Under the pieces are notes generated by a model that saw nothing but the letters and a program-made list of their open reading frames with translations, did no database searches and was not told the DNA's origin. Positions 12,036 to 24,844 of a stretch of 30,114 nt of DNA are shown here, piece after piece. How positions within the stretch are numbered: the first letter of the stretch is position 1; each line of letters begins with the position of its first letter. A program made the translations under genes and the position numbers. The stretch is taken from IMG/VR virus record IMGVR_UViG_3300044723_007681, positions 1 to 30,114 of that record. One strand, given 5' to 3'. The stretch is from a virus (taxonomy: Duplodnaviria > Caudoviricetes).

Positions 12036-13649
12036 TTACTTTCCGTACTGAGAGTTGACTAAGCTGTTCATTACAACATCACTCCCACCAAACATGAAAT
12101 ACTGCGCCATGTTGTTATTGGTAATTGCTTGGTTATCATATACCGTGGTTGACTGATACCAAGACGAATTGTCTTGTAGCACTGGCTGATTTGCAGTAAT
12201 ATCTGCAGAGACTAAGTTCATCAATGCTACCTGTGTGGCTTGATCTTGAGCTGAGTCTCCTAAACGAGCAACGATACTCTGTACGATCTTTTGGGCCATT
12301 TCTCGTTTTGCTTCGGCTTTTGTTTTTGGCTCAGTCTTTGTGTCAGACTTTGATTCTGACTTTGTTTCTGATTTGGGTTCTGACTTTGGCTCACTGGTTC
12401 CACTTTCCGCCTTGTCCTCAGAAGATTCATTTGAGCTTGCACTTGCTGGTTCGGGGCTATCGGATACATTTTCTGTCACCTCTGCTACTTGTGTTTCGAC
12501 TTCAGCTTCTACTGATTCAACTGTTTCAGCAATTGTTTCAACAGTACCAGCATCATTCATATCTGCTATTGGCTCAACGGTTATTTCCATGTTAGAATCA
12601 ACTGTCACTTCAAATGATTCCATACCACCCATGCTATCTGTCACTTGAACTTCAAAGACCTCAATCGGAGCAATCTCCATTTCCATCTCTACGGTCTCAA
12701 CTGTGGGCTCAGATAAGTCAAGTATTTCTGATGTTGTTGAAGCACTGTCCGTAAGAGTGTCTATTGCTGTTGCTACCAACTCTTCTGTGATTGTAGTAAT
12801 TTGAGAAACGATAAGCTGTGTTTGATTAAAAGTTGTTTCAATTAGTGTATTATCAAACGTGGGTCCAAAGTTACCTTCATAAAACCCTTGATCCATACCA
12901 AACAACTCGAGTGTAGCAAATGCGCTGGTATAATTATTTTCTTCAATAGTTTGTGTAAAGAAGAACTTTTGGTACCCAGAAAAGTTTATATCGTCAAATA
13001 CGTGTTCAAACTTATGAAGCAGTGTACCATTTGAATCTGTAATACCTAGTGTGATAGAAAATTGGTCTTTGCAGTCTGATTGGAACCCAGTCTCACTACA
13101 GAGTGGAACATCCAGATTTGAACTATCGGAACCAACATCAGCACCATATTTAATTGTGAATCCTTGATTGATCTCACTCTGTGTCATTTTATCAAATAGA
13201 TTTACTGTTTGTGCCGCCGTACCGCCACTTGTACTCTGGTTGCCAGTTTGAAGACAATTTCCTCCAGCTGGCCCACACGTGTCACCAACTACAACACTAC
13301 CACTCGTATTCCAATTAGGAGCTGTCGTTGTGTTTGTGCTTGCTTCGAATCCTGGATTTTTTACGAAGTTGCTTGTTGTCACAGATTTTGTTTGTTCTGT
13401 AGTAACTTCTTCTATTGTTGTGGTCGTATGAACTTCTAGTCCACCACCTAGACTCTCGACTGTTGTTTCTTCTGATACGATAGTTCCGCCGTTTGGGCCT
13501 ACATCCTGTGCATTAGAATAATAGGGGTATGCCAAGACAAGCAATACCACTAGTGAAAAAACAACCAACACCCAAGACAACAACACCGGCTGCGACCGTT
13601 GATGGTCTGTGGTCTGTAATTTCATGATTGTCGGAATCAATATAGTCAT
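12036..13649 (-). CDS. Large exported or membrane-anchored protein (beta-rich domain, acidic linker, helical C-terminus)
   Basis: Hydrophobic signal or TM ending YSNA-QD; NPGFE...WNTSG resembles the start of a carbohydrate-binding-like jelly roll; 4 Cys; E/T/S-rich linker with KSEP/KSET repeats. Start codon uncertain. Confidence 0.75.
   Translation of the reverse strand: MTILIPTIMKLQTTDHQRSQPVLLSWVLVVFSLVVLLVLAYPYYSNAQDVGPNGGTIVSEETTVESLGGGLEVHTTTTIEEVTTEQTKSVTTSNFVKNPGFEASTNTTTAPNWNTSGSVVVGDTCGPAGGNCLQTGNQSTSGGTAAQTVNLFDKMTQSEINQGFTIKYGADVGSDSSNLDVPLCSETGFQSDCKDQFSITLGITDSNGTLLHKFEHVFDDINFSGYQKFFFTQTIEENNYTSAFATLELFGMDQGFYEGNFGPTFDNTLIETTFNQTQLIVSQITTITEELVATAIDTLTDSASTTSEILDLSEPTVETVEMEMEIAPIEVFEVQVTDSMGGMESFEVTVDSNMEITVEPIADMNDAGTVETIAETVESVEAEVETQVAEVTENVSDSPEPASASSNESSEDKAESGTSEPKSEPKSETKSESKSDTKTEPKTKAEAKREMAQKIVQSIVARLGDSAQDQATQVALMNLVSADITANQPVLQDNSSWYQSTTVYDNQAITNNNMAQYFMFGGSDVVMNSLVNSQYGK
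12320..12395. repeat. Degenerate 12-bp coding repeat (KSEP-KSET-KSES-KSDT-KTEP)
   Basis: Plus strand ctttgattctga/ctttgtttctga/tttgggttctga with 12-nt periodicity. Confidence 0.65.
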
Positions 13650-13652
13650 CTT

Positions 13653-14171
13653 CTAATTGTCCTCGGCTGGAAAAGGGTAGTCATCGTTTTTTCTATCCTC
13701 CGAGCCACCCATTGACCTTTCAGATACCATTAATTTAGAGCCAGATGGAATGTCCTGAGGATTGTTTCTCCACTGATCTAATGCTTTGTCACCAATAGCA
13801 CCTTTATATGGACAAGGTGTTCCAGCCATTATCATTGCGTCAAAAACTCTCGCATCTTGACACATTGCTGATACTGCAGCAACTTTCATTCCCATTCCAA
13901 ACAAGGAACGTGCTAGCTTTAATCTCTCACAATTTTCATCTGTGATTGTTACACCAGATGCAATACCTAATATTTGTGTTTGTACACCAGCACTAAAAGC
14001 ACTTTTACATACGTCATTGTTGTTTACAACAATCGAAGGAGCCGATGCAGTTGGTGGTGTTTTATCTACTGTCACCGTACCGCTTGATACAGTAGAAACA
14101 GTGTTGGTTTGAGCAATGGCCTGTTGCACACTAAGAAACATAACGATTAAGGCCAACAATATCTTCTTCAT
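13653..14171 (-). CDS. Secreted Cys-containing hypothetical protein
   Basis: From ATG 14171 it has a classical signal peptide MKKILLALIVMFLSVQQAIA-Q, then TPPTASAP and 4 Cys (DVC, ENC, MCQD, TPCP). Confidence 0.8.
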   Translation of the reverse strand: MKKILLALIVMFLSVQQAIAQTNTVSTVSSGTVTVDKTPPTASAPSIVVNNNDVCKSAFSAGVQTQILGIASGVTITDENCERLKLARSLFGMGMKVAAVSAMCQDARVFDAMIMAGTPCPYKGAIGDKALDQWRNNPQDIPSGSKLMVSERSMGGSEDRKNDDYPFPAEDN

Positions 14172-14181
14172 TGCTGAATCC

Positions 14182-14451
14182 TTATCGTTGGAAGATGTTA
14201 TACTTTCTTTTTTTCTTTGCCCAATGGACTTGGTTATCGCCAGTGCCAACTACAGCAGAGCCAGTTGCATTAGTCGGTGCTTCTTCATTAGTATTTCGTA
14301 AATTTCTATCTAAATTCTTCTTTGCAGACAATTCTTTTGTCTTTAGGCGGGGCGATTTATTATCTTTTGGATCTTTTCGATCAAAGGCCCTTTGTTGAAA
14401 TCCCGAAGGTTTATAATTAACTCTTTCTGTAAATTGTTTAAAGTTCAGCAC
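14182..14451 (-). CDS. Hypothetical basic protein
   Basis: 89 aa; FKQFTE start and NEEAPTN internal motif, the same type of motif seen in the modular late proteins. Confidence 0.65.
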   Translation of the reverse strand: MLNFKQFTERVNYKPSGFQQRAFDRKDPKDNKSPRLKTKELSAKKNLDRNLRNTNEEAPTNATGSAVVGTGDNQVHWAKKKRKYNIFQR

Positions 14452-15979: not shown

Positions 15980-16129
15980 TTATCCTTCTCCTTGTGTTAC
16001 TGTCTTTATATAATCAGACGTTTTTAAAAACTTTAGTCTACCGTATTTATCAGTTAGTCTACTTGCATCATCTTCGTGTTTCACGGCAATTTTTTTCTTA
16101 ACTGGTTTCTTTCTTGGTTTTCTTGCCAT
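15980..16129 (-). CDS. Small basic protein (49 aa)
   Basis: Read manually: MARKPRKKPVKKKIAVKHEDDASRLTDKYGRLKFLKTSDYIKTVTQGEG*. Coupled to both neighbours; missing from the ORF track. Confidence 0.6.
   Translation of the reverse strand: MARKPRKKPVKKKIAVKHEDDASRLTDKYGRLKFLKTSDYIKTVTQGEG
16044..16051 (-). promoter_or_regulatory. Possible late promoter (GATAAATA)
   Basis: 7/8 match, about 65 nt upstream of the 15979 start; lies inside the 49 aa ORF. Confidence 0.35.
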
Positions 16130-18432
16130 TAGTTATAATGACCCGATTTCTTCAATGGTGCAAGTAATGGGTTTACTTTTTTAGCTGCAGGACTCTTATC
16201 TAATGAACCTCCACTAGCAATATGCTTTAGTGCGTCATGCGAGTGTGCCATATGCTTTTGGAGCGTTTCTTTATCACCTGGTTTTGCAGTATTATATCTA
16301 TTTAGAGCTGCTCTTGCAGTCTTTTCAGACACCTTTTCTGTGCTATTGTTAAATTGAACACCTGAGTGTGTATCCTTTAGAGATACAACCTTACGAAGCT
16401 GCATTGCAATATGTTCTGGCTCATCCTTTGCAGCTTTAGTAACTCTTACTCCGGAAGCTTCTGCTGTGAAGTTGTAATCTTCAGCAGCTAGAATCTCTTC
16501 AATTTCAATCTCACTGAAATATGTTTCACCGACACCCAAGGGCTTTTCATCCCATGACTCAGCCTGACCTTCTGGCCGGCCTTCTTTTTCTTTCTGGCCC
16601 ATTGATTCGGCTTTACGATAAAACTTCTTTGCAGCAGCCATATACTTTGCTGCTGCTTCACCAGTTCCTTGAGTTTGAGCCTTCTTTGCCATCATGTAGT
16701 AATGCTTAGCAAGAGCTTGTGATTGTTTTGAGCTACGAACCTCTTCGTCACCCATTCCTTCATTTACTCTTTCTTCAGCGTGGACGTAGCCTTTCTTTAA
16801 TTTGTCCTTGACATCTTTCTTGTCAACAACTTGAACTCTAGCTTTACCTGGCTTATATGGATATGCCATCAAAGTCTCTTTTTTAGGATCTTTCAGCTGC
16901 CGAGGCATTTTTGCTTCTTCAACTTCAGTTTCTTCTGTGTGAGCTTGTTTAGGAAAACCTTGAGGATTCATAATAGACTTATTGTACCTTGTTGCACTTC
17001 TATTAGTACCTTTTGTAATGTTTTTTCTACCTCGTGTTAACTTAACACCTTTTGCAGTTCCAGGTGCAACCTTTGTTACTCCTCTATTTTTCATAAATTG
17101 CTTTATATCAACTCTATCCCTTGTATCCAGCAGTTCTTTTCGGCGTTTTGGATCCATTTTTTCATCAATCTGCTCAACATCTTCTTTCATAGCTTTAGAA
17201 ATAGCCTTACGACGATTCTTTAAATACTTATCGGACTTATCAACATCACCATCATTATCAATATCACCGTCCTCTTGTCCAACTGGATCTAATTTGTGTT
17301 TCGCTTCAGACATTTTCTTCTTACGTGTATGCATGTGAGATTCTTCTACAACAATCTCTAACTCTTCAACTGGAACATCTTCGACATAATTTAAACCAAA
17401 TAGAACATCATAATGCGTGACATAAGCCGTTCCATCTTCATTTTCAACAAGAGTATGCATACCAGGTAAACATTGACCTTCTCCATGCTCCTTATGAACA
17501 ACATGCTTTGCACAATCGTGTTGTAGAGCTTTATCAACAGCTGGAGTGTCTACATCGTTATGAGCTTCAGCCATACTAGCTTGAGCTTTTCTTACAGGAT
17601 CACCAGAGCTTTGTGCAGCTTTTTGATCTTTGGCTTTTTGTTTCATAGCTTTTAACTTTTGCTGTGCTAGAGCGGTCCCAGATTTAGCACCAGCAAGTCT
17701 TTGTCTATCTTTCATCACTTGTTGAACTCTATCAACTTTACTTTGAACCTTTTGCTGTTTTCTCTCTGCAGCATCAGCTCTACCTGCAGTTGACATTCTA
17801 TATGCAGCCTTTTTTGCACCTTTGGCAGCCAAGCTACCGGCACCTTTTGCAACAGCCTTAACACCTCTACCAAGAGCACCAAGGAGACCTTCTTCAAGTT
17901 CAATTAACTCTTCGTCAGACATCTCACTAATCATTTGAACGAAATCCCCTTCGGACATTTCTGTAATGAAATCTACATCCCAAATATCTTCTACCTGTTC
18001 ATGGTGCACTGTTACACCAGAATCTTTAAGGTCATCAATATGGGTATCTGATAATTTTTCACCCTTCTTAACTCGACCACCTGTCTTTTCTTTATTGACA
18101 GTGTAGCTCTTGCCATCTTTGTCCATCGAGACATGAACTGACATATCTTCATCAATCTCAACTTCTTCCATGTAGCCAAGTTTCTTAGCTACTTGATATC
18201 TATGCTTATCTGCTTCACCACCTGGTTTCTCATGACCACCAGATCGTCTATGATGATAGTCGATATGAGAATCTGGTGAACTAAATCGTGGGTCTTTCGA
18301 CTTACCACCATTTAGCTTTGCTGAGTCTTTAGTACCAAGATACTGTTCAACAATCTCAACTTCTGAAGATTCATTATTTAAAACAGCTTTTGCTGCATTT
18401 AAAAGACTATCTGAAAGACCGAATTTATTCAT
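16129..18432 (-). CDS. Large modular late protein, probable capsid-internal/prohead core polyprotein
   Basis: Basic modules alternate with short Glu-rich linkers (VEIVEQ, VEIDE, LIELEE, VEQIDE, EVEE, VNE); includes an EF-hand-like DGDIDNDGDVD segment. Confidence 0.75.
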   Translation of the reverse strand: MNKFGLSDSLLNAAKAVLNNESSEVEIVEQYLGTKDSAKLNGGKSKDPRFSSPDSHIDYHHRRSGGHEKPGGEADKHRYQVAKKLGYMEEVEIDEDMSVHVSMDKDGKSYTVNKEKTGGRVKKGEKLSDTHIDDLKDSGVTVHHEQVEDIWDVDFITEMSEGDFVQMISEMSDEELIELEEGLLGALGRGVKAVAKGAGSLAAKGAKKAAYRMSTAGRADAAERKQQKVQSKVDRVQQVMKDRQRLAGAKSGTALAQQKLKAMKQKAKDQKAAQSSGDPVRKAQASMAEAHNDVDTPAVDKALQHDCAKHVVHKEHGEGQCLPGMHTLVENEDGTAYVTHYDVLFGLNYVEDVPVEELEIVVEESHMHTRKKKMSEAKHKLDPVGQEDGDIDNDGDVDKSDKYLKNRRKAISKAMKEDVEQIDEKMDPKRRKELLDTRDRVDIKQFMKNRGVTKVAPGTAKGVKLTRGRKNITKGTNRSATRYNKSIMNPQGFPKQAHTEETEVEEAKMPRQLKDPKKETLMAYPYKPGKARVQVVDKKDVKDKLKKGYVHAEERVNEGMGDEEVRSSKQSQALAKHYYMMAKKAQTQGTGEAAAKYMAAAKKFYRKAESMGQKEKEGRPEGQAESWDEKPLGVGETYFSEIEIEEILAAEDYNFTAEASGVRVTKAAKDEPEHIAMQLRKVVSLKDTHSGVQFNNSTEKVSEKTARAALNRYNTAKPGDKETLQKHMAHSHDALKHIASGGSLDKSPAAKKVNPLLAPLKKSGHYN

Positions 18433-18698
18433 TTCATTTTTCCTTTTTGAACTCTATCTCTGAACCTAATGAAGGTGGGACCATCCGCCTCCAATGTTTT
18501 GATAAATTTGTTTAACAAGTCTAACAGTTTATCTCTTAGCAAAGGGTTCGTTAGAGCTCGTTCTCCTTGTTTTAGTGCTCTTCTAACAGTTTCTAACTCG
18601 TCTTGGTCAACCATTCCTAATCGAAGCAAACGATGTAGTTTTGGTGTTAAACCTACGAAATTCTCATCTATATTTATAAATTCTTCTTGCTTGTCCAT
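18429..18698 (-). CDS. Hypothetical helical protein
   Basis: 89 aa with LLRLGMVD and ALTNP motifs; N-terminal NIDE; ATGA overlap with the downstream gene. Confidence 0.75.
   Translation of the reverse strand: MDKQEEFINIDENFVGLTPKLHRLLRLGMVDQDELETVRRALKQGERALTNPLLRDKLLDLLNKFIKTLEADGPTFIRFRDRVQKGKMK
18671..18678 (-). promoter_or_regulatory. Possible late promoter (TATAAATA), intragenic
   Basis: Exact consensus about 240 nt upstream of the 767 aa gene, but inside a CDS. Confidence 0.4.
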
Positions 18699-20261: not shown

Positions 20262-23200
20262 TTATTTTGCTTCCCCCGGTTTGCCAGATAAGAAGTTAGC
20301 ACGACTAAACTCAGCCCTATCAACAAGTTTTGATGGTTTATTATCTTTCGAAACAACAAAACCCTCACCTTTTGATTTAACACCTCCAATATGATGATCG
20401 AAATCTTGGTGTGTTGATAGTGATTTTACTAAATGATTCTTAGCTGATTGTAAGTGATGATGAATATCAAAAGCTCTTTGGAAGTGCTTTTTGTTTGCAT
20501 CAACATGATCAGTGTGTTCCTTGCCTACACCAATATGTTTTTCTTTTGCTGCATCAGTTTTTACTTTATCAGCTTTCTTTTGATAATGATCTTTAACATG
20601 ATCCTTGTAACCATTTACTGATGGCTTAGAACCTTCTCTAACAGTCTTGTTGATGTAAGTGTTAATATGAGTATTATGTGCATGAGCTCCAATGGCTTCA
20701 TGATGACCATCTTCAATTTTGTTGAAATGCTCAGTAGCCTTTTTCATATGGTGTTCATAACCTTTTTGGTTTTCTTCACTATGTTTGACTTTACTCATAT
20801 CGTGGTGAGGAGATATAACATGAACGTCCTTGTGACTTTTCATCTGTGAGACGTCTGCATTGAAGTGAGCCTTCATAGACTCAAGATCTTTACCTTTATA
20901 CTCTGTATGTGGAACTACACCAATCTTAGAGCTAGCAATTTTCTTACCGTGATCAGAACCTTTCTTGGTTGAGTAAGAGATTGTATTTGGCTTAAAGTGA
21001 TACTTACCTTCTTTATGCTCAACATCACCTTCTGGATTGCTTTTCGACTTAACACCACTATGCATTAAATCACCTTGATATACCTTACCCTTGGGTGTGA
21101 CTTTGGGTAAGTGTTTTAACGCATGTTTCAACTTTGCAGCAAGACCTGGTGCATGTCCATGATTCCTATCGATGTCTTCTTCTGTATGATTGATTTTAGG
21201 ATCTTTGTTGAACACTGACTTAGAGCCAACAAAGAACTTACCAGTCTTAGGATGATGACCGAAAACAATACTTGGAGCTCCGTCATACTTTGCTGTTACA
21301 GATGAACCATCTTTCTTCTTACCTTTGATCAGATCATGTGTATGCTCGAGTGAGTGGAAAGCATGATGGAAACCTTCATCACCACTGTTGTGTGCATGAT
21401 CCTCGACGTGATCCAAATGCTTTAGCTTTCCAGTATCTGTAGCAGCTTCGATAATGAACTCTTCTTTAAGAGTAAATCCTAAAGGCTCAAAGCCATCTTG
21501 AACTTTGGCACCAGCTCTCCATTGTTTACAACTCCAATACCTAGCTTTTGTTCTTGGTCCTGGATTGTCACAATTGTGTCTTGCTCTGAATGACTTTCTA
21601 CGAGTTGGACTATCTCTTTTGATTGAAAGATTTGGATCACCAAACCTTACTGTCTTTACATTACCAGTTGATGGATCTTTAACTTTAACCATAAACTTTT
21701 TAGGTCCACCAGGTGTACGAGATATCTTTCCTAACTTTTCTTCCTCAACTTTCTTCTTACCGAAATATTTGTCCTTATCGATAGGCTTACTCTTTACACC
21801 TCTGTTTCTTCTGTCATTATATGCTTGAAAGAATGTTTTTCCTTGAGACTGTGTGGAAGGAGATGTGGTTGCACCTGAACCAGCTGATGTGTAGTTTTCG
21901 TTAACTTGACCAGGAGTCATTTTTCGTGCATGTGCTGCTGCTTCTGGCGTTCCTTCTAACTTTTGATAAGGATTGGATGGTACATCTTTCTTTTCACCAA
22001 TCTTTAGAATGTATTCTTTATTGGTTTTCTTTTTCTTACCTTTGTTAGCTGCAGCTGCAATAATGTTTGTATCAAACTCTACAGGAACATTCTCTTTAAA
22101 CTGATCAAATCCTTCTCTTGTAAGTCTTTGCCTGACTGCAGATTTTGATCGGCCATGAATTCTTCTGAAATCACCTTCAGAATACTTAGCCAAGTCTCTG
22201 TGAACCTTAGTAACTCCTCCGACTGGACGTTTAGTATTAGATCCTAGCTTTGCACTAGAGGAACGTCTCAGATTAGACGCCTTTTTTCTGCCTCTACCAT
22301 ATCTTTTCTTAAACATTCCAGATGTTCTGGAGTTAATACTACTTTTACTTCTTAAAGCAGCACTTTTTCTTTTCAAACGCCTTTGATAGTTTTGTACACC
22401 TGGATGTCTATATGCTTCGGCTAGATCTGCATCCATTTCGATAGCAGCGCCACCTGAAATAAATGAATTGACTCTACCAAATCCATTTTCAATTCTGGAT
22501 TTGTCTTCGTGCAAACAGTCTTCCATTCCACGAATAAAGATCTCAAGAATTGCATCAAAAGGAATTTCTGACTCTTCTGACTTTCTTATTAGAGCTTCCA
22601 GATCCTCTTTTGTAACTAGAGGCTCTTCAACTCTATCTTTTTCATTCTTTTTCTTATATCTGTGTTTTGTATGAGATGCTACTGTTGGGTTTTCTTTTCT
22701 TACATGCTCTTTTCCACCAACAGCCTTTTTACCTACACTATCAGGCCATGCCTTTTCACTTATAAGTGCACCAACAAAACTATCAAATGAATTAGAAAGT
22801 CTTACGAGCTCAGCCTTTCTTGTCTTAGGTAAAGTTCTTGTTGCAATTCTATTAATAATTTTTTGTTTTGATTGAACTTTTTTATCAATAAACATTTTTG
22901 AAGCAGGAGATTGTGAAGAGTATGAAGCACCTCTTTTGCCTGCAACCTTTTTACGAACGACCTTAATAGCAGCCTTTCTTGCTCTTTGTCTTAGATTCTT
23001 TTCTGGAACTCTTCTTTTAGAGTACAGCTTCTTCATTCTTTTTAACTTTGGGCGAATTCGTCTCATTAACAACTTACGTTTGATACGAGCCTTCACATCC
23101 ATTACTGCTTCATCAATTAGAGCATCTTCATTTACTTTCTGTTGATCATTTTTAGCTTTCATTTGATCATCCTTAGCTTTACTATCTGTATTCTTCATTC

Positions 23201-24029
23201 TTTTTAATGCCCTTATGAATTGCATCGATGAGAGTGGGTCTTGCATGGTTTTTTTCAAATTGCCAATAGCATCTTTTGCAAATGTCCGCTGCCTTTGGTT
23301 CATGTATTCACCATCAGCTGCTTGGTCTAATGCTTTTTGAACTTGTAGGACCGGTATTTGATTGCGGTCCATCTGTTTCAGTCTCATTAAGGTTCTTTTT
23401 GCAATAGAATCAGCTTTTTTATCTGCAGGATCAGATTCTTTTGCTTTACTGTCACCATATGCTTCTTTAAGATTGCTGTTTACGTGATCCATAATCTCTT
23501 TAGCGTGAGGATGTAATGCTTTTGGAAGACCTGCTTTGAAAGACTTGTGATCACCATTCTTTGCATGCTCTCTCATCTTTGTACCAGATACACCTTCAGT
23601 ACCTTCAGAGTCTGGATCCCTATGACCTGCGCTTTTGACCTTTATTGATTTGAAGTTATAGTGACCATGTGGTCCTTCTTTACCATTGTAGGTGTGGAGA
23701 AGTTTATGCATTCCATCAACACGGTCACTCCCTACAACCATTGTGAGATGTGTATGACCTGCTTTATGTAACTTTGATGCTTGATGAAGAACGGATGGGT
23801 GAGTTTTATCAGACGAAGAAACATTTACACCTTTTGGTGCAACTTTTTTAACGTAACCAACTTTATGATCAGTTGGAACAGGGTTCTTCTTATTATCGTG
23901 GGAATGAGATACGATAACATGAGCAGTGGCACCTTGTGCCTTTGCTTCTTTATGTACAGCATGAATTAGTTTTTCATGCCCAGTCGTTGGAGGATTCATC
24001 CTCCCATACGTCATTACTACTTTACTCAT
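20262..24029 (-). CDS. 1255 aa multidomain protein: N-terminal HIGH-superfamily nucleotidyltransferase (cytidylyltransferase-like), basic modules, C-terminal KxDG ligase-like domain
   Basis: GRMNPPTTGH, VVGSDR and SGTKMR (HIGH/KMSKS-type) in aa 1-189. TAKYDGAP, QGDL, GEGFVV and KLVDR in the last 394 aa match motifs I, III, IV and V of the ligase/capping nucleotidyltransferase fold. Confidence 0.85.
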   Translation of the reverse strand: MSKVVMTYGRMNPPTTGHEKLIHAVHKEAKAQGATAHVIVSHSHDNKKNPVPTDHKVGYVKKVAPKGVNVSSSDKTHPSVLHQASKLHKAGHTHLTMVVGSDRVDGMHKLLHTYNGKEGPHGHYNFKSIKVKSAGHRDPDSEGTEGVSGTKMREHAKNGDHKSFKAGLPKALHPHAKEIMDHVNSNLKEAYGDSKAKESDPADKKADSIAKRTLMRLKQMDRNQIPVLQVQKALDQAADGEYMNQRQRTFAKDAIGNLKKTMQDPLSSMQFIRALKRMKNTDSKAKDDQMKAKNDQQKVNEDALIDEAVMDVKARIKRKLLMRRIRPKLKRMKKLYSKRRVPEKNLRQRARKAAIKVVRKKVAGKRGASYSSQSPASKMFIDKKVQSKQKIINRIATRTLPKTRKAELVRLSNSFDSFVGALISEKAWPDSVGKKAVGGKEHVRKENPTVASHTKHRYKKKNEKDRVEEPLVTKEDLEALIRKSEESEIPFDAILEIFIRGMEDCLHEDKSRIENGFGRVNSFISGGAAIEMDADLAEAYRHPGVQNYQRRLKRKSAALRSKSSINSRTSGMFKKRYGRGRKKASNLRRSSSAKLGSNTKRPVGGVTKVHRDLAKYSEGDFRRIHGRSKSAVRQRLTREGFDQFKENVPVEFDTNIIAAAANKGKKKKTNKEYILKIGEKKDVPSNPYQKLEGTPEAAAHARKMTPGQVNENYTSAGSGATTSPSTQSQGKTFFQAYNDRRNRGVKSKPIDKDKYFGKKKVEEEKLGKISRTPGGPKKFMVKVKDPSTGNVKTVRFGDPNLSIKRDSPTRRKSFRARHNCDNPGPRTKARYWSCKQWRAGAKVQDGFEPLGFTLKEEFIIEAATDTGKLKHLDHVEDHAHNSGDEGFHHAFHSLEHTHDLIKGKKKDGSSVTAKYDGAPSIVFGHHPKTGKFFVGSKSVFNKDPKINHTEEDIDRNHGHAPGLAAKLKHALKHLPKVTPKGKVYQGDLMHSGVKSKSNPEGDVEHKEGKYHFKPNTISYSTKKGSDHGKKIASSKIGVVPHTEYKGKDLESMKAHFNADVSQMKSHKDVHVISPHHDMSKVKHSEENQKGYEHHMKKATEHFNKIEDGHHEAIGAHAHNTHINTYINKTVREGSKPSVNGYKDHVKDHYQKKADKVKTDAAKEKHIGVGKEHTDHVDANKKHFQRAFDIHHHLQSAKNHLVKSLSTHQDFDHHIGGVKSKGEGFVVSKDNKPSKLVDRAEFSRANFLSGKPGEAK

Positions 24030-24058
24030 CCAGGTTTTCCTTAGACTATACTGGTTAA

Positions 24059-24844
24059 TTATGAGTTATTTATAAAACTTAACTTCTTTACTCTTCTTTT
24101 AATTTCCTCAAAAGGTAAATCATCGTATATTGAAAATCTAAACAACAATCTTTCATTAACACCATTCATGTGAACGTAATGAGTCCACTGAGTATTTAAT
24201 AATGCTGCTTTGTATGTGTATGACCAATCATCATCTGACTTAAAATATTCATCCCAAGCGTGTGTGTATCTTTGATTATTTTTAGTAAACATAACTGGTG
24301 CTGGACTATCATCATTAGACCATTCTTTACATAACAAAATATTTAAACTAGCAATAGAACCCTTTGCTTTTTTCTCCATATGATCTGCAGTCCATCCTGG
24401 AAGTAAATCATCTTTGGTATATGGAGGAACACTATTCGGTTTTACACCTCTTTTTGGAACATCGTAAAGCTGTCCATCCTTCTCAGTTTTAAAATTTCTA
24501 GCACTATCATAGTGAACATTGTAAATATAAGTTTTTAAATTATGAAAAAACCACGGAGCAACAATATCAAATTGTGATTTGATTTCATCACATAATTCAA
24601 CTATGTAAGGATACTTAGTTATAGGAAAATCATTGTTAACTTCAAAAACACCCTTAGTGTGATTATGTCTATAATCACATTCTGAATATGACCAACCTGC
24701 TCGTGACCATCCTGTATAATTTTCAGGGTATCTCCAGGGGTGTTTTTGTAAGATAGGCTGAATACTAATAAAAGTTTCTGTTAGAACTTTTGTATCAACA
24801 GAGTGGTCAAATGAAAAAATTCTTTCGTCATCGTATAATAACAT
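24059..24844 (-). CDS. Putative 2OG-Fe(II) oxygenase-like protein
   Basis: VHYD (HxD), ASLNILL, YKAALLNTQWTH, ERLLFRFSI; resembles 8138..8794. Confidence 0.55.
   Translation of the reverse strand: MLLYDDERIFSFDHSVDTKVLTETFISIQPILQKHPWRYPENYTGWSRAGWSYSECDYRHNHTKGVFEVNNDFPITKYPYIVELCDEIKSQFDIVAPWFFHNLKTYIYNVHYDSARNFKTEKDGQLYDVPKRGVKPNSVPPYTKDDLLPGWTADHMEKKAKGSIASLNILLCKEWSNDDSPAPVMFTKNNQRYTHAWDEYFKSDDDWSYTYKAALLNTQWTHYVHMNGVNERLLFRFSIYDDLPFEEIKRRVKKLSFINNS
24067..24074 (-). promoter_or_regulatory. T4-type late promoter (TATAAATA)
   Basis: Exact consensus about 38 nt upstream of the 1255 aa gene, with an AAGGA SD between them. Confidence 0.8.

Follow-up and report, generated by a model that had tools for sequence, protein, structure and literature searches.

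Why would a phage carry two unrelated nucleotidyltransferases in a single open reading frame (ORF), with a long intervening stretch between them? The question is raised by P0001, an ORF of 1255 amino acids (aa; 20262..24029, minus strand) in IMG/VR record IMGVR_UViG_3300044723_007681, of which we analysed positions 1 to 30,114 (hereafter the window), a 30-kb fragment of a T4-like phage. The gene order runs from DNA polymerase, UvsX and helicase through the block with P0001 to spanins, primase, thymidylate synthase and NrdAB. P0001 opens with an ATG and is intact, and every motif that a preliminary description of the locus had listed for its two enzymes is found in it: GRMNPPTTGH (aa 9-18) and SGTKMR (148-153) in an N-terminal HIGH-type domain, and KYDG (914-917), QGDL (985-988), EGFVV (1222-1226) and KLVDR (1234-1238) in a C-terminal domain. 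The main clue to this arrangement lies in the intervening 670 residues; most likely the fusion serves packaging, as a polyprotein, and not channelling. On balance we lean towards reading P0001 as a predicted late, head-packaged chain of cargo modules, cut by the prohead protease gp21 and injected, whose freed enzyme pair would seal or tag RNA ends.

The fusion itself is not an artefact of assembly, an objection that the preliminary description had raised. Contigs of X8, an independent sequencing run among the four compared, tile the whole ORF, overlapping and without indels or joints, and full-length fused relatives were found at 95%, 88% and 51% identity (P0003, P0004 and P0006); no single contig spans the ORF in any of the four runs. 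Ten runs of estuary, marine or biofilm origin, drawn from ten studies and likewise independent, contain 65-97% of the words of the window; RNA runs contain only 5-9%, and an Rfam scan of the window found no RNA.

The middle of the chain consists of modules, all read on the minus strand, and homology blocks begin and end at sites of the form [ILVF]xE. The HIGH domain is followed by m2 (aa 190-307; 23109..23462), which is absent in P0006, by m3 (aa 308-425; 22755..23108), very basic (phrog_23027) and widespread behind the HIGH domain, and by m4 (aa 426-538; 22416..22754), which occurs in separate genes of other phages. Next come m5-m7 (aa 539-763; 21741..22415), basic or of low complexity and bounded by LAE538, FKE646, VNE711 and VEE763, and m8 (aa 764-850; 21480..21740), a conserved module (phrog_7595) that in loci L002, L027 and L031 stands alone as a gene of 88 aa with a leader of its own. 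Residues 851-861 (21447..21479) appear from leader comparison to be the remnant of a DUF6267 head-targeting leader, ending in the candidate site IIE861. Read depth over part of m8 (21527-21683) is 4 to 30 times higher in three runs, which suggests that this module is common to many other viruses.

In P0001 the [ILVF]xE pattern is found 15 times between the enzymes against 7.5 expected, in contrast with 0 versus 1.2 in the HIGH domain and 1 versus 4.0 in DUF6267. The same contrast holds in a non-redundant set of 50 long homologs chosen out of 120: outside the domains 657 sites were counted versus 397 expected (1.65x), an enrichment restricted to this spacing and to Glu (not Asp), while the ratio falls to 0.62x inside HIGH domains and 0.57x in 85 DUF6267 domains and is 1.01x in 24 helicase/UvsX controls. 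In 39 of the 50, the HIGH domain has a site behind it. Genes in scaffold position behind gp21 (named by position) have about twice the expected [ILVF]xE in all five related genomes; the gp21 gene is present in these five genomes, and none lies on the window fragment. Gain and loss of modules respect the same sites. P0003 carries a 145-aa insert (aa 308-452, at Glu307) that runs from IDE/A to FDE/A, the slash marking the candidate cut, and the deletion that removes m2 from P0006 runs from Glu to Glu. At Glu189, three runs have loose ends (23455 and 23465) and an alternative allele with extra sequence; one of these ends, read by hand, has Leu-His-Glu just ahead of the same codons. This suggests a further insert bounded by sites, if both ends belong to one insert, and two short peptides of the allele had no match among the stored proteins. 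Taken together with the leaders described below, the site pattern and the traffic of modules at the sites indicate that the ORF strings cargo modules together, and that these are likely separated by cleavage in the prohead. The P0003 insert is histidine-rich, with a motif recalling ParB/Srx domains and no match in Pfam. Other combinations also occur: P0299 (1145 aa) joins DUF6267, HIGH and a Pol-beta nucleotidyltransferase, three transferase folds in one chain, and P0257 joins DUF6267, LysM and HIGH.

A strict leader pattern, short and ending hydrophobic-x-Glu, opens 109 of 120 stand-alone DUF6267 proteins versus 8 of 56 control proteins, and is present in 60 of 120 short HIGH homologs. In P0001 the sequence EFIIE/A precedes DUF6267, and P0006 retains the old Met at the same junction. 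We take the DUF6267 leader to resemble the head-targeting leader of T4 itself. In that phage a leader of about 10 aa loads IPII and IPIII and is trimmed by gp21 (PMC9958956, in part), and Alt is cut at ITE-6 and LTE-619 (PMC5694885, in part). HIGH homologs have been detected in virions of S-SZBM1 (gp140, 2 peptides; PMC9146016, Table 1), S-CREM2 (ORF154, 3 peptides; PMC10665884, Table 3) and S-SCSM1 (PMC9602691, in part). Packaging, which the preliminary description had expected, is thus likely. A literature search, with most subscription papers outside its reach, found no paper on a processed cyanophage polyprotein.

The late timing proposed in the preliminary description is also supported. 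A T4-type late promoter consensus, TATAAATA (24067..24074, minus strand), lies 37 nt upstream of the ATG and overlaps the final codons of the preceding ORF; a Shine-Dalgarno-like AAGGA is read at 24038..24042 (minus strand). By itself the match is a weak statistical signal, with 5 occurrences in the window against 2.0 expected and 6 of 100 shuffles reaching 5. On sequence evidence its position is conserved among relatives: among the fetched loci, two sets that overlap and contain near-duplicates, 64 of 156 DUF6267 ORFs have the consensus in the 80 nt upstream, versus 0 of 56 helicase/UvsX ORFs. One ORF behind a late-promoter consensus, comprising the HIGH enzyme, six modules and a ligase-fold domain, would likely be made late.

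Should the protein instead stay whole, it could channel an intermediate from one active site to the other. The single ORF kept in P0003, P0004 and P0006 agrees with such a scheme, as do short, site-free fusions of both domains in other phages. In a survey of 150 family representatives at 50% identity, the two domains are fused in DUF-HIGH order in 36; of the 29 linkers parsed (2 of them badly bounded), 20 contain no site, and many of these 20 are about 10 aa long. In P0001, however, 670 aa and 15 candidate sites separate the domains, a leader remnant stands ahead of DUF6267, and the HIGH-first order is rare (4 of 120 long matches, one identical to the query; 2 of the 150 representatives), and we consider a channelling enzyme very improbable. 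The coupled two-step activity advanced in the preliminary description is favoured by gene linkage and the short fusions of reverse order, and draws no support from this particular fusion.

Linkage was examined in 80 DUF6267 and 80 HIGH loci, and it bears out the earlier statement that the two domains are usually separate neighbouring genes. A HIGH gene lies within 3 kb in 53 of the DUF6267 loci, nine are fused and 18 have a cut flank; DUF6267 is found in 78 of the HIGH loci, the flank being cut in the other 2. The DUF6267 stop and the HIGH start are no more than 5 nt apart in 52 of 125 cases. Because the linkage holds in every locus with enough flank, we regard the enzymes as coupled. Complex prediction for the two domains scored 0.00 twice, which gives no verdict and is not used as evidence.

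The C-terminal partner (aa 862-1255; 20265..21446, minus strand) is matched by Pfam DUF6267 over aa 870-1250 (E 1.6e-102) and is predicted to be a ligase-type nucleotidyltransferase domain with a helical insert and Lys914 as nucleophile. Its AlphaFold2 (AF2) model has a pLDDT of 95. The first-ranked match in VIA is NgrRnl (5cot; Z 8.9, root-mean-square deviation 3.9, 186 aligned), followed by REL1 (1xdn; Z 7.9), Trl1 (7.4) and Rnl2 (7.2), with small helical bundles interspersed; among the matches listed, all those with more than 140 aligned residues are ligases. A search of BFVD gave an RNA ligase match (E 2.5e-3), and an RNA_ligase cluster in Atlas at 0.75 is taken as a lead only. Among 140 sequences, motif I is nearly invariant (Lys914 in 138, Asp916 in 137, the Gly in 139), and so are QGD (134/134/136), EG (138, Glu1222, and 139), Lys1234 (140) and Arg1238 (139); the numbers III, IV and V were assigned to the ligase motifs by order. 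The motifs from KxDG to Lys1234 are also found in a 298-aa DUF6267 protein of S-RIM2 with a shortened insert. The modelled domain thus appears to combine the KxDG, the ordered motifs III-V and the adenylyltransferase fold of lysyl-NMP (nucleoside monophosphate) nucleotidyltransferases, and both fold assignments of the preliminary description stand, on VIA matches of the AF2 model for the last 394 aa and on Foldseek matches of that for aa 1-189.

The domain is a bare one. The chain stops 21 residues past Lys1234, with no oligonucleotide-binding (OB) domain and no Rnl2 C-terminal domain, and Lys914 is residue 53 of DUF6267, with one long helix ahead and no N-terminal module of the Rnl5 type. As regards the helical Ia domain with which NAD-dependent DNA ligases bind NMN at their N-terminus, a conserved HLxHxED and a helix (14-40) precede motif I, but LigA is not among the 50 VIA matches listed. 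In sequence-based searches, the Pfam scan of P0001 gave no ligase match, the PDB sequence searches gave nothing for P0001 and only helical chance matches for the DUF6267 profile, and among 85 DUF6267 members scanned with Pfam, RNA_lig_T4_1 and RNA_ligase were each matched by two, with chance-like E-values. DUF6267 with its HIGH partner matches 466 of 50,697 phage records, nearly all of cyanophages plus SAR11 and OM43 phages, and the literature search, limited as above, found no paper that names it. In three loci (L070:3335-5030, L066:9965-11606, L072:7772-8915) a small gene of about 150 codons interrupts DUF6267, which is left as two ORFs (aa 1-147 and 147-end). The inserted gene has its own leader and, of the halves, only the first has one; a tRNA cluster lies upstream of the split genes. 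An intron was rejected as an explanation of these splits, there being no Rfam intron and a small ORF in the gap.

The distribution of DUF6267 raises the prospect that it is the missing DNA ligase of cyanophages and their kin, a stand-in for gp30 that seals nicks in phage DNA while the HIGH enzyme recycles nicotinamide mononucleotide (NMN) if NAD+ is used. Cyanomyoviruses are described as lacking g30 (PMC2984593, in part), and among the carriers (10 or 11 genomes or records, three of them isolates' records and two incomplete) 8 of 10 have no PF01068 and 11 of 11 no PF09414; the 466 records are nearly all cyanophages, and the weak top matches in Foldseek are DNA ligases. Against this, two of ten carriers also have a gp30-type ligase, a late promoter and a leader are ill-suited to Okazaki joining, the OB domain is missing and VIA places RNA ligases first. 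We judge a stand-in role of this kind to be decidedly unlikely.

The N-terminal domain (aa 1-189; 23463..24029, minus strand), with TTGH and SGTKMR and ending at the candidate site LKE189, matches the PHROG cytidyltransferase (E 2e-58), and its AF2 model (pLDDT 92) is matched about equally in Foldseek by PPAT, NadD, FAD synthetase and archaeal NMNAT (E 2e-5 to 3e-4). Pfam CTP_transf_like scores 19 bits on P0001, slightly below the cut-off of 21. The HIGH motifs ((H/T)xGH and KMSKS-like) and a Rossmann-like fold are present, and His18, Ser148 and Arg153 are invariant in 107 of 107 HIGH sequences. We regard the domain as a HIGH transferase, with NMNAT-like as the best guess for its subfamily, a call that rests on Foldseek and hidden Markov models; among the 107 sequences the weak matches to specific families are NadR (37), NadD (12), NadM-type (11) and PPAT (4). 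Histidine makes up 11.8% of the HIGH domain and 12.2% of DUF6267, against 1.3% of the intervening modules. Many freshwater-type loci (L032, L033, L040, L041, L047, L057, L058 and others) have, adjoining the pair, a further HIGH paralog that is divergent (about 29% identity).

These matches bear on another proposal, found in cyanophage papers and in the preliminary description, that the HIGH domain is an NMNAT restoring NAD+ against NAD-depleting defences, with the ligase domain as a co-packaged helper. Models of NMN adenylyltransferases do lead the weak matches, and the GRM-x-P start is common to the NMNAT of M. thermoautotrophicum. NadV is reported in every NadM phage (PMC9503650, in part), whereas NAMPT/NadV was found in just one of ten related genomes or records (2 incomplete, and the window record being a 30-kb fragment), which weakens NAD salvage as the sole function. 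The strict tie to a ligase fold is also left unexplained, and on the whole we find the proposal unlikely.

The neighbourhood of the pair holds no constant third gene in the 80 DUF6267 loci. A ferritin/Dps-like gene is found about 3 kb downstream in 29 of the 80 (L002-L081), and a HAD phosphatase in 12. In HTVC008M (L001:6914-14865), DUF6267, a P-loop kinase, HIGH and a HAD deoxyribonucleotidase share a single block and all have leader-like starts, and the block resembles a kinase-phosphatase-ligase kit as far as its sequence goes. A Pnkp-like repair kit was rejected as a general explanation, the HAD cluster being in 12 of 80 loci, and a frequent P-loop kinase cluster has no leader and accompanies a DNA-modification gene; a search with a strict pattern gave 4 and 0 of 160 loci. 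Of the earlier suggestion of RNA or tRNA repair, then, RNA end chemistry remains as the best fit to the fold, whereas a T4-style Pnkp/Rnl kit is patchy.

The pair might also serve as a takeover tool like Alt, placing an NMP or a larger nucleotide group on a host protein, or capping ends instead of joining them. The delivery route would be the same as for T4 Alt (PMC9958956 and PMC5694885, both in part), capping enzymes have the same fold, and a nucleic-acid-binding appendage of known type is missing. Still, the nearest folds are RNA ligases and no target or eraser gene recurs among the neighbours, so that we give this possibility a low probability. Far less credible is the view that both domains are dead enzymes retained as core or scaffold material: mid-chain site density is scaffold-like, but the sites are depleted within the domains, and Lys914, Asp916, Glu1222, Lys1234, His18, Ser148 and Arg153 are conserved in the proportions given above.

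Returning to the cargo chain, the following sequence of events can be envisaged. P0001 would co-assemble into the prohead core, where cleavage after Glu189, 307, 425, 538, 646, 711, 763 and 861 very probably frees both enzymes. The HIGH-first fusion would be a means of loading several cargoes via one gene, and the pieces are likely injected separately. Once freed, the two enzymes probably work as a pair. HIGH enzymes make compounds of the type A5'pp-X, and T4 RNA ligase accepts such compounds as donors. Known ligases depend on an extra domain, which DUF6267 lacks, to adenylate their own substrate and so to seal fully. The bare nucleotidyltransferase domain of Rnl2 performs steps 1 and 3 and not step 2 (PMC3884662, in part), and removal of the N-domain leaves Rnl5 able to seal pre-adenylated nicks (PMC4408790, in part). 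Where a bare ligase domain is coupled with a HIGH enzyme, the simplest reading is a relay in which HIGH makes or recycles the activated donor, likeliest NAD+ from NMN. Tentatively, the HIGH enzyme may join the AMP of ATP to a phosphorylated acceptor, likeliest NMN, to yield A5'pp-X, and the ligase domain may, via Lys914, seal or cap RNA 3'-OH ends early in infection. Sealing or tagging of RNA ends with a HIGH-made donor is our best guess as to the substrate. A fuller version is rather doubtful: protease-divided cargo polyproteins would swap modules at their cut sites, and their constant cargo would be a new two-part ligase that uses a HIGH-made dinucleotide (NAD+ or another A5'pp-X) as donor to join or tag RNA ends minutes after injection.

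Several observations weigh against this picture. The N-terminus of P0001 has no leader, so that targeting must rest on internal signals. The [ILVF]xE pattern is low in information, the helicase of the window also having 14 versus 10.4 expected, and two possible sites, MRE154 and VRE1132, lie inside the enzymes. As to the virions, two of the three proteome papers allow for carry-over in the parts available. In S-SZBM1, the HIGH protein gp140 has a leader and the DUF6267 protein gp141 has none, and gp141 is absent from the 30 virion proteins detected (PMC9146016), which fits the leader rule but means that co-packaging is not universal. An NMNAT of S-SCSM2R (homology unchecked) is not named among 23 virion proteins in the accessible portion of PMC12801897. 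Foldseek against PDB gave no match to the DUF6267 model at E<=0.001, the best being DNA ligases at E 0.1, and VIA Z-scores of 8-9 are moderate. The helical insert, of 120 aa, could itself do the work of the absent substrate-binding domain, in which case a separate donor would be unneeded. Finally, family scores of the HIGH domain are far under the cut-offs (e.g., 20.9 versus 112 and 13.5 versus 341 bits), and its best PDB sequence match is MJ0951/UPF0348 (E 8e-4), not an NMNAT.

Elsewhere in the window, the 767-aa neighbour at 16129..18432 (minus strand) is probably another modular cargo protein belonging to this late block, judging from PHROG matches common to the gene block, with 17 [ILVF]xE sites against 12 expected. 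An 89-aa ORF at 14182..14451 (minus strand) has an internal Met that would open a leader of the pattern described above (F-x-x-F-x-E), and related sequence occurs after a site in long homologs. Another 89-aa gene (18429-18698) is, by eye, like an internal module of a 416-aa protein (L085:9743-10993), and may be another module that moves between a gene of its own and a polyprotein. Also encoded in the late block, at 12036-14249, are a protein of 537 aa whose long tail is acidic and one of 198 aa with a signal peptide, with no Pfam matches.

The ligase fold of DUF6267 makes the old statement that cyanomyoviruses lack a ligase directly testable. If the reading as a two-part ligase were true, it would give a function to a near-core pair of genes in cyanophages long described as having no ligase. 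The grammar of cut sites would offer a rule by which the long "cytidyltransferase" genes of T4-like phages can be read as inventories of injected cargo, where early effectors so far unrecognised are likely to be found, and it predicts exact mature N-termini that can be checked in existing virion spectra.

Among known systems, P0001 is like T4 IPI-III and Alt in its late expression, in the leader ending hydrophobic-x-Glu in its relatives, in the sites around an enzyme and, presumably, in delivery with the DNA. In T4 each internal protein has its own gene and is trimmed at its ends, whereas P0001 places eight modules in one chain with internal sites; it differs further in having no N-terminal leader and in a cargo that is neither an ADP-ribosyltransferase nor a restriction inhibitor. 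DUF6267 shares with Rnl5 (NgrRnl, 5cot), Rnl2/REL1 (1s68, 1xdn), Trl1 and Rnl1 the adenylyltransferase fold (Z 6.5-8.9) and motifs I, III, IV and V in order, with the KxDG lysine. It lacks the N-terminal OB module of Rnl5 (126 aa; PMC4408790, in part) and the C-terminal domain of Rnl2 and Rnl1, and it departs from RNA ligases in general by the helical insert between its motifs, an identity of 9-12% and the constant HIGH partner; unlike DNA ligases (ATP or NAD), it has no OB domain after the nucleotidyltransferase domain. The N-terminal enzyme is like NadM/NadR/NadD, PPAT and FAD synthetase in its HIGH fold (template modelling score about 0.55-0.6) and its TxGH and SGTKMR motifs, and unlike the NMNAT families in falling below every family cut-off, in the mostly absent NAMPT partner and in the extra conserved SHS-x-D, GSDR and RDPD. 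For the HIGH/NMNAT side we take phage NARP2 as the system of comparison. Polyvalent proteins (PMC5512222, in part) are likewise big mosaic virion proteins bearing several injected activities. The available part of that source describes autoproteolysis or no processing for them, not release by a prohead protease, and does not mention cyanophages, and the domains typical of them (MPTase, ART, GNAT, MuF) were not found in Pfam and PHROG scans of P0001. From the portions available (PMC5512222, PMC7824862), they are nonetheless the nearest concept for a chain such as this one.

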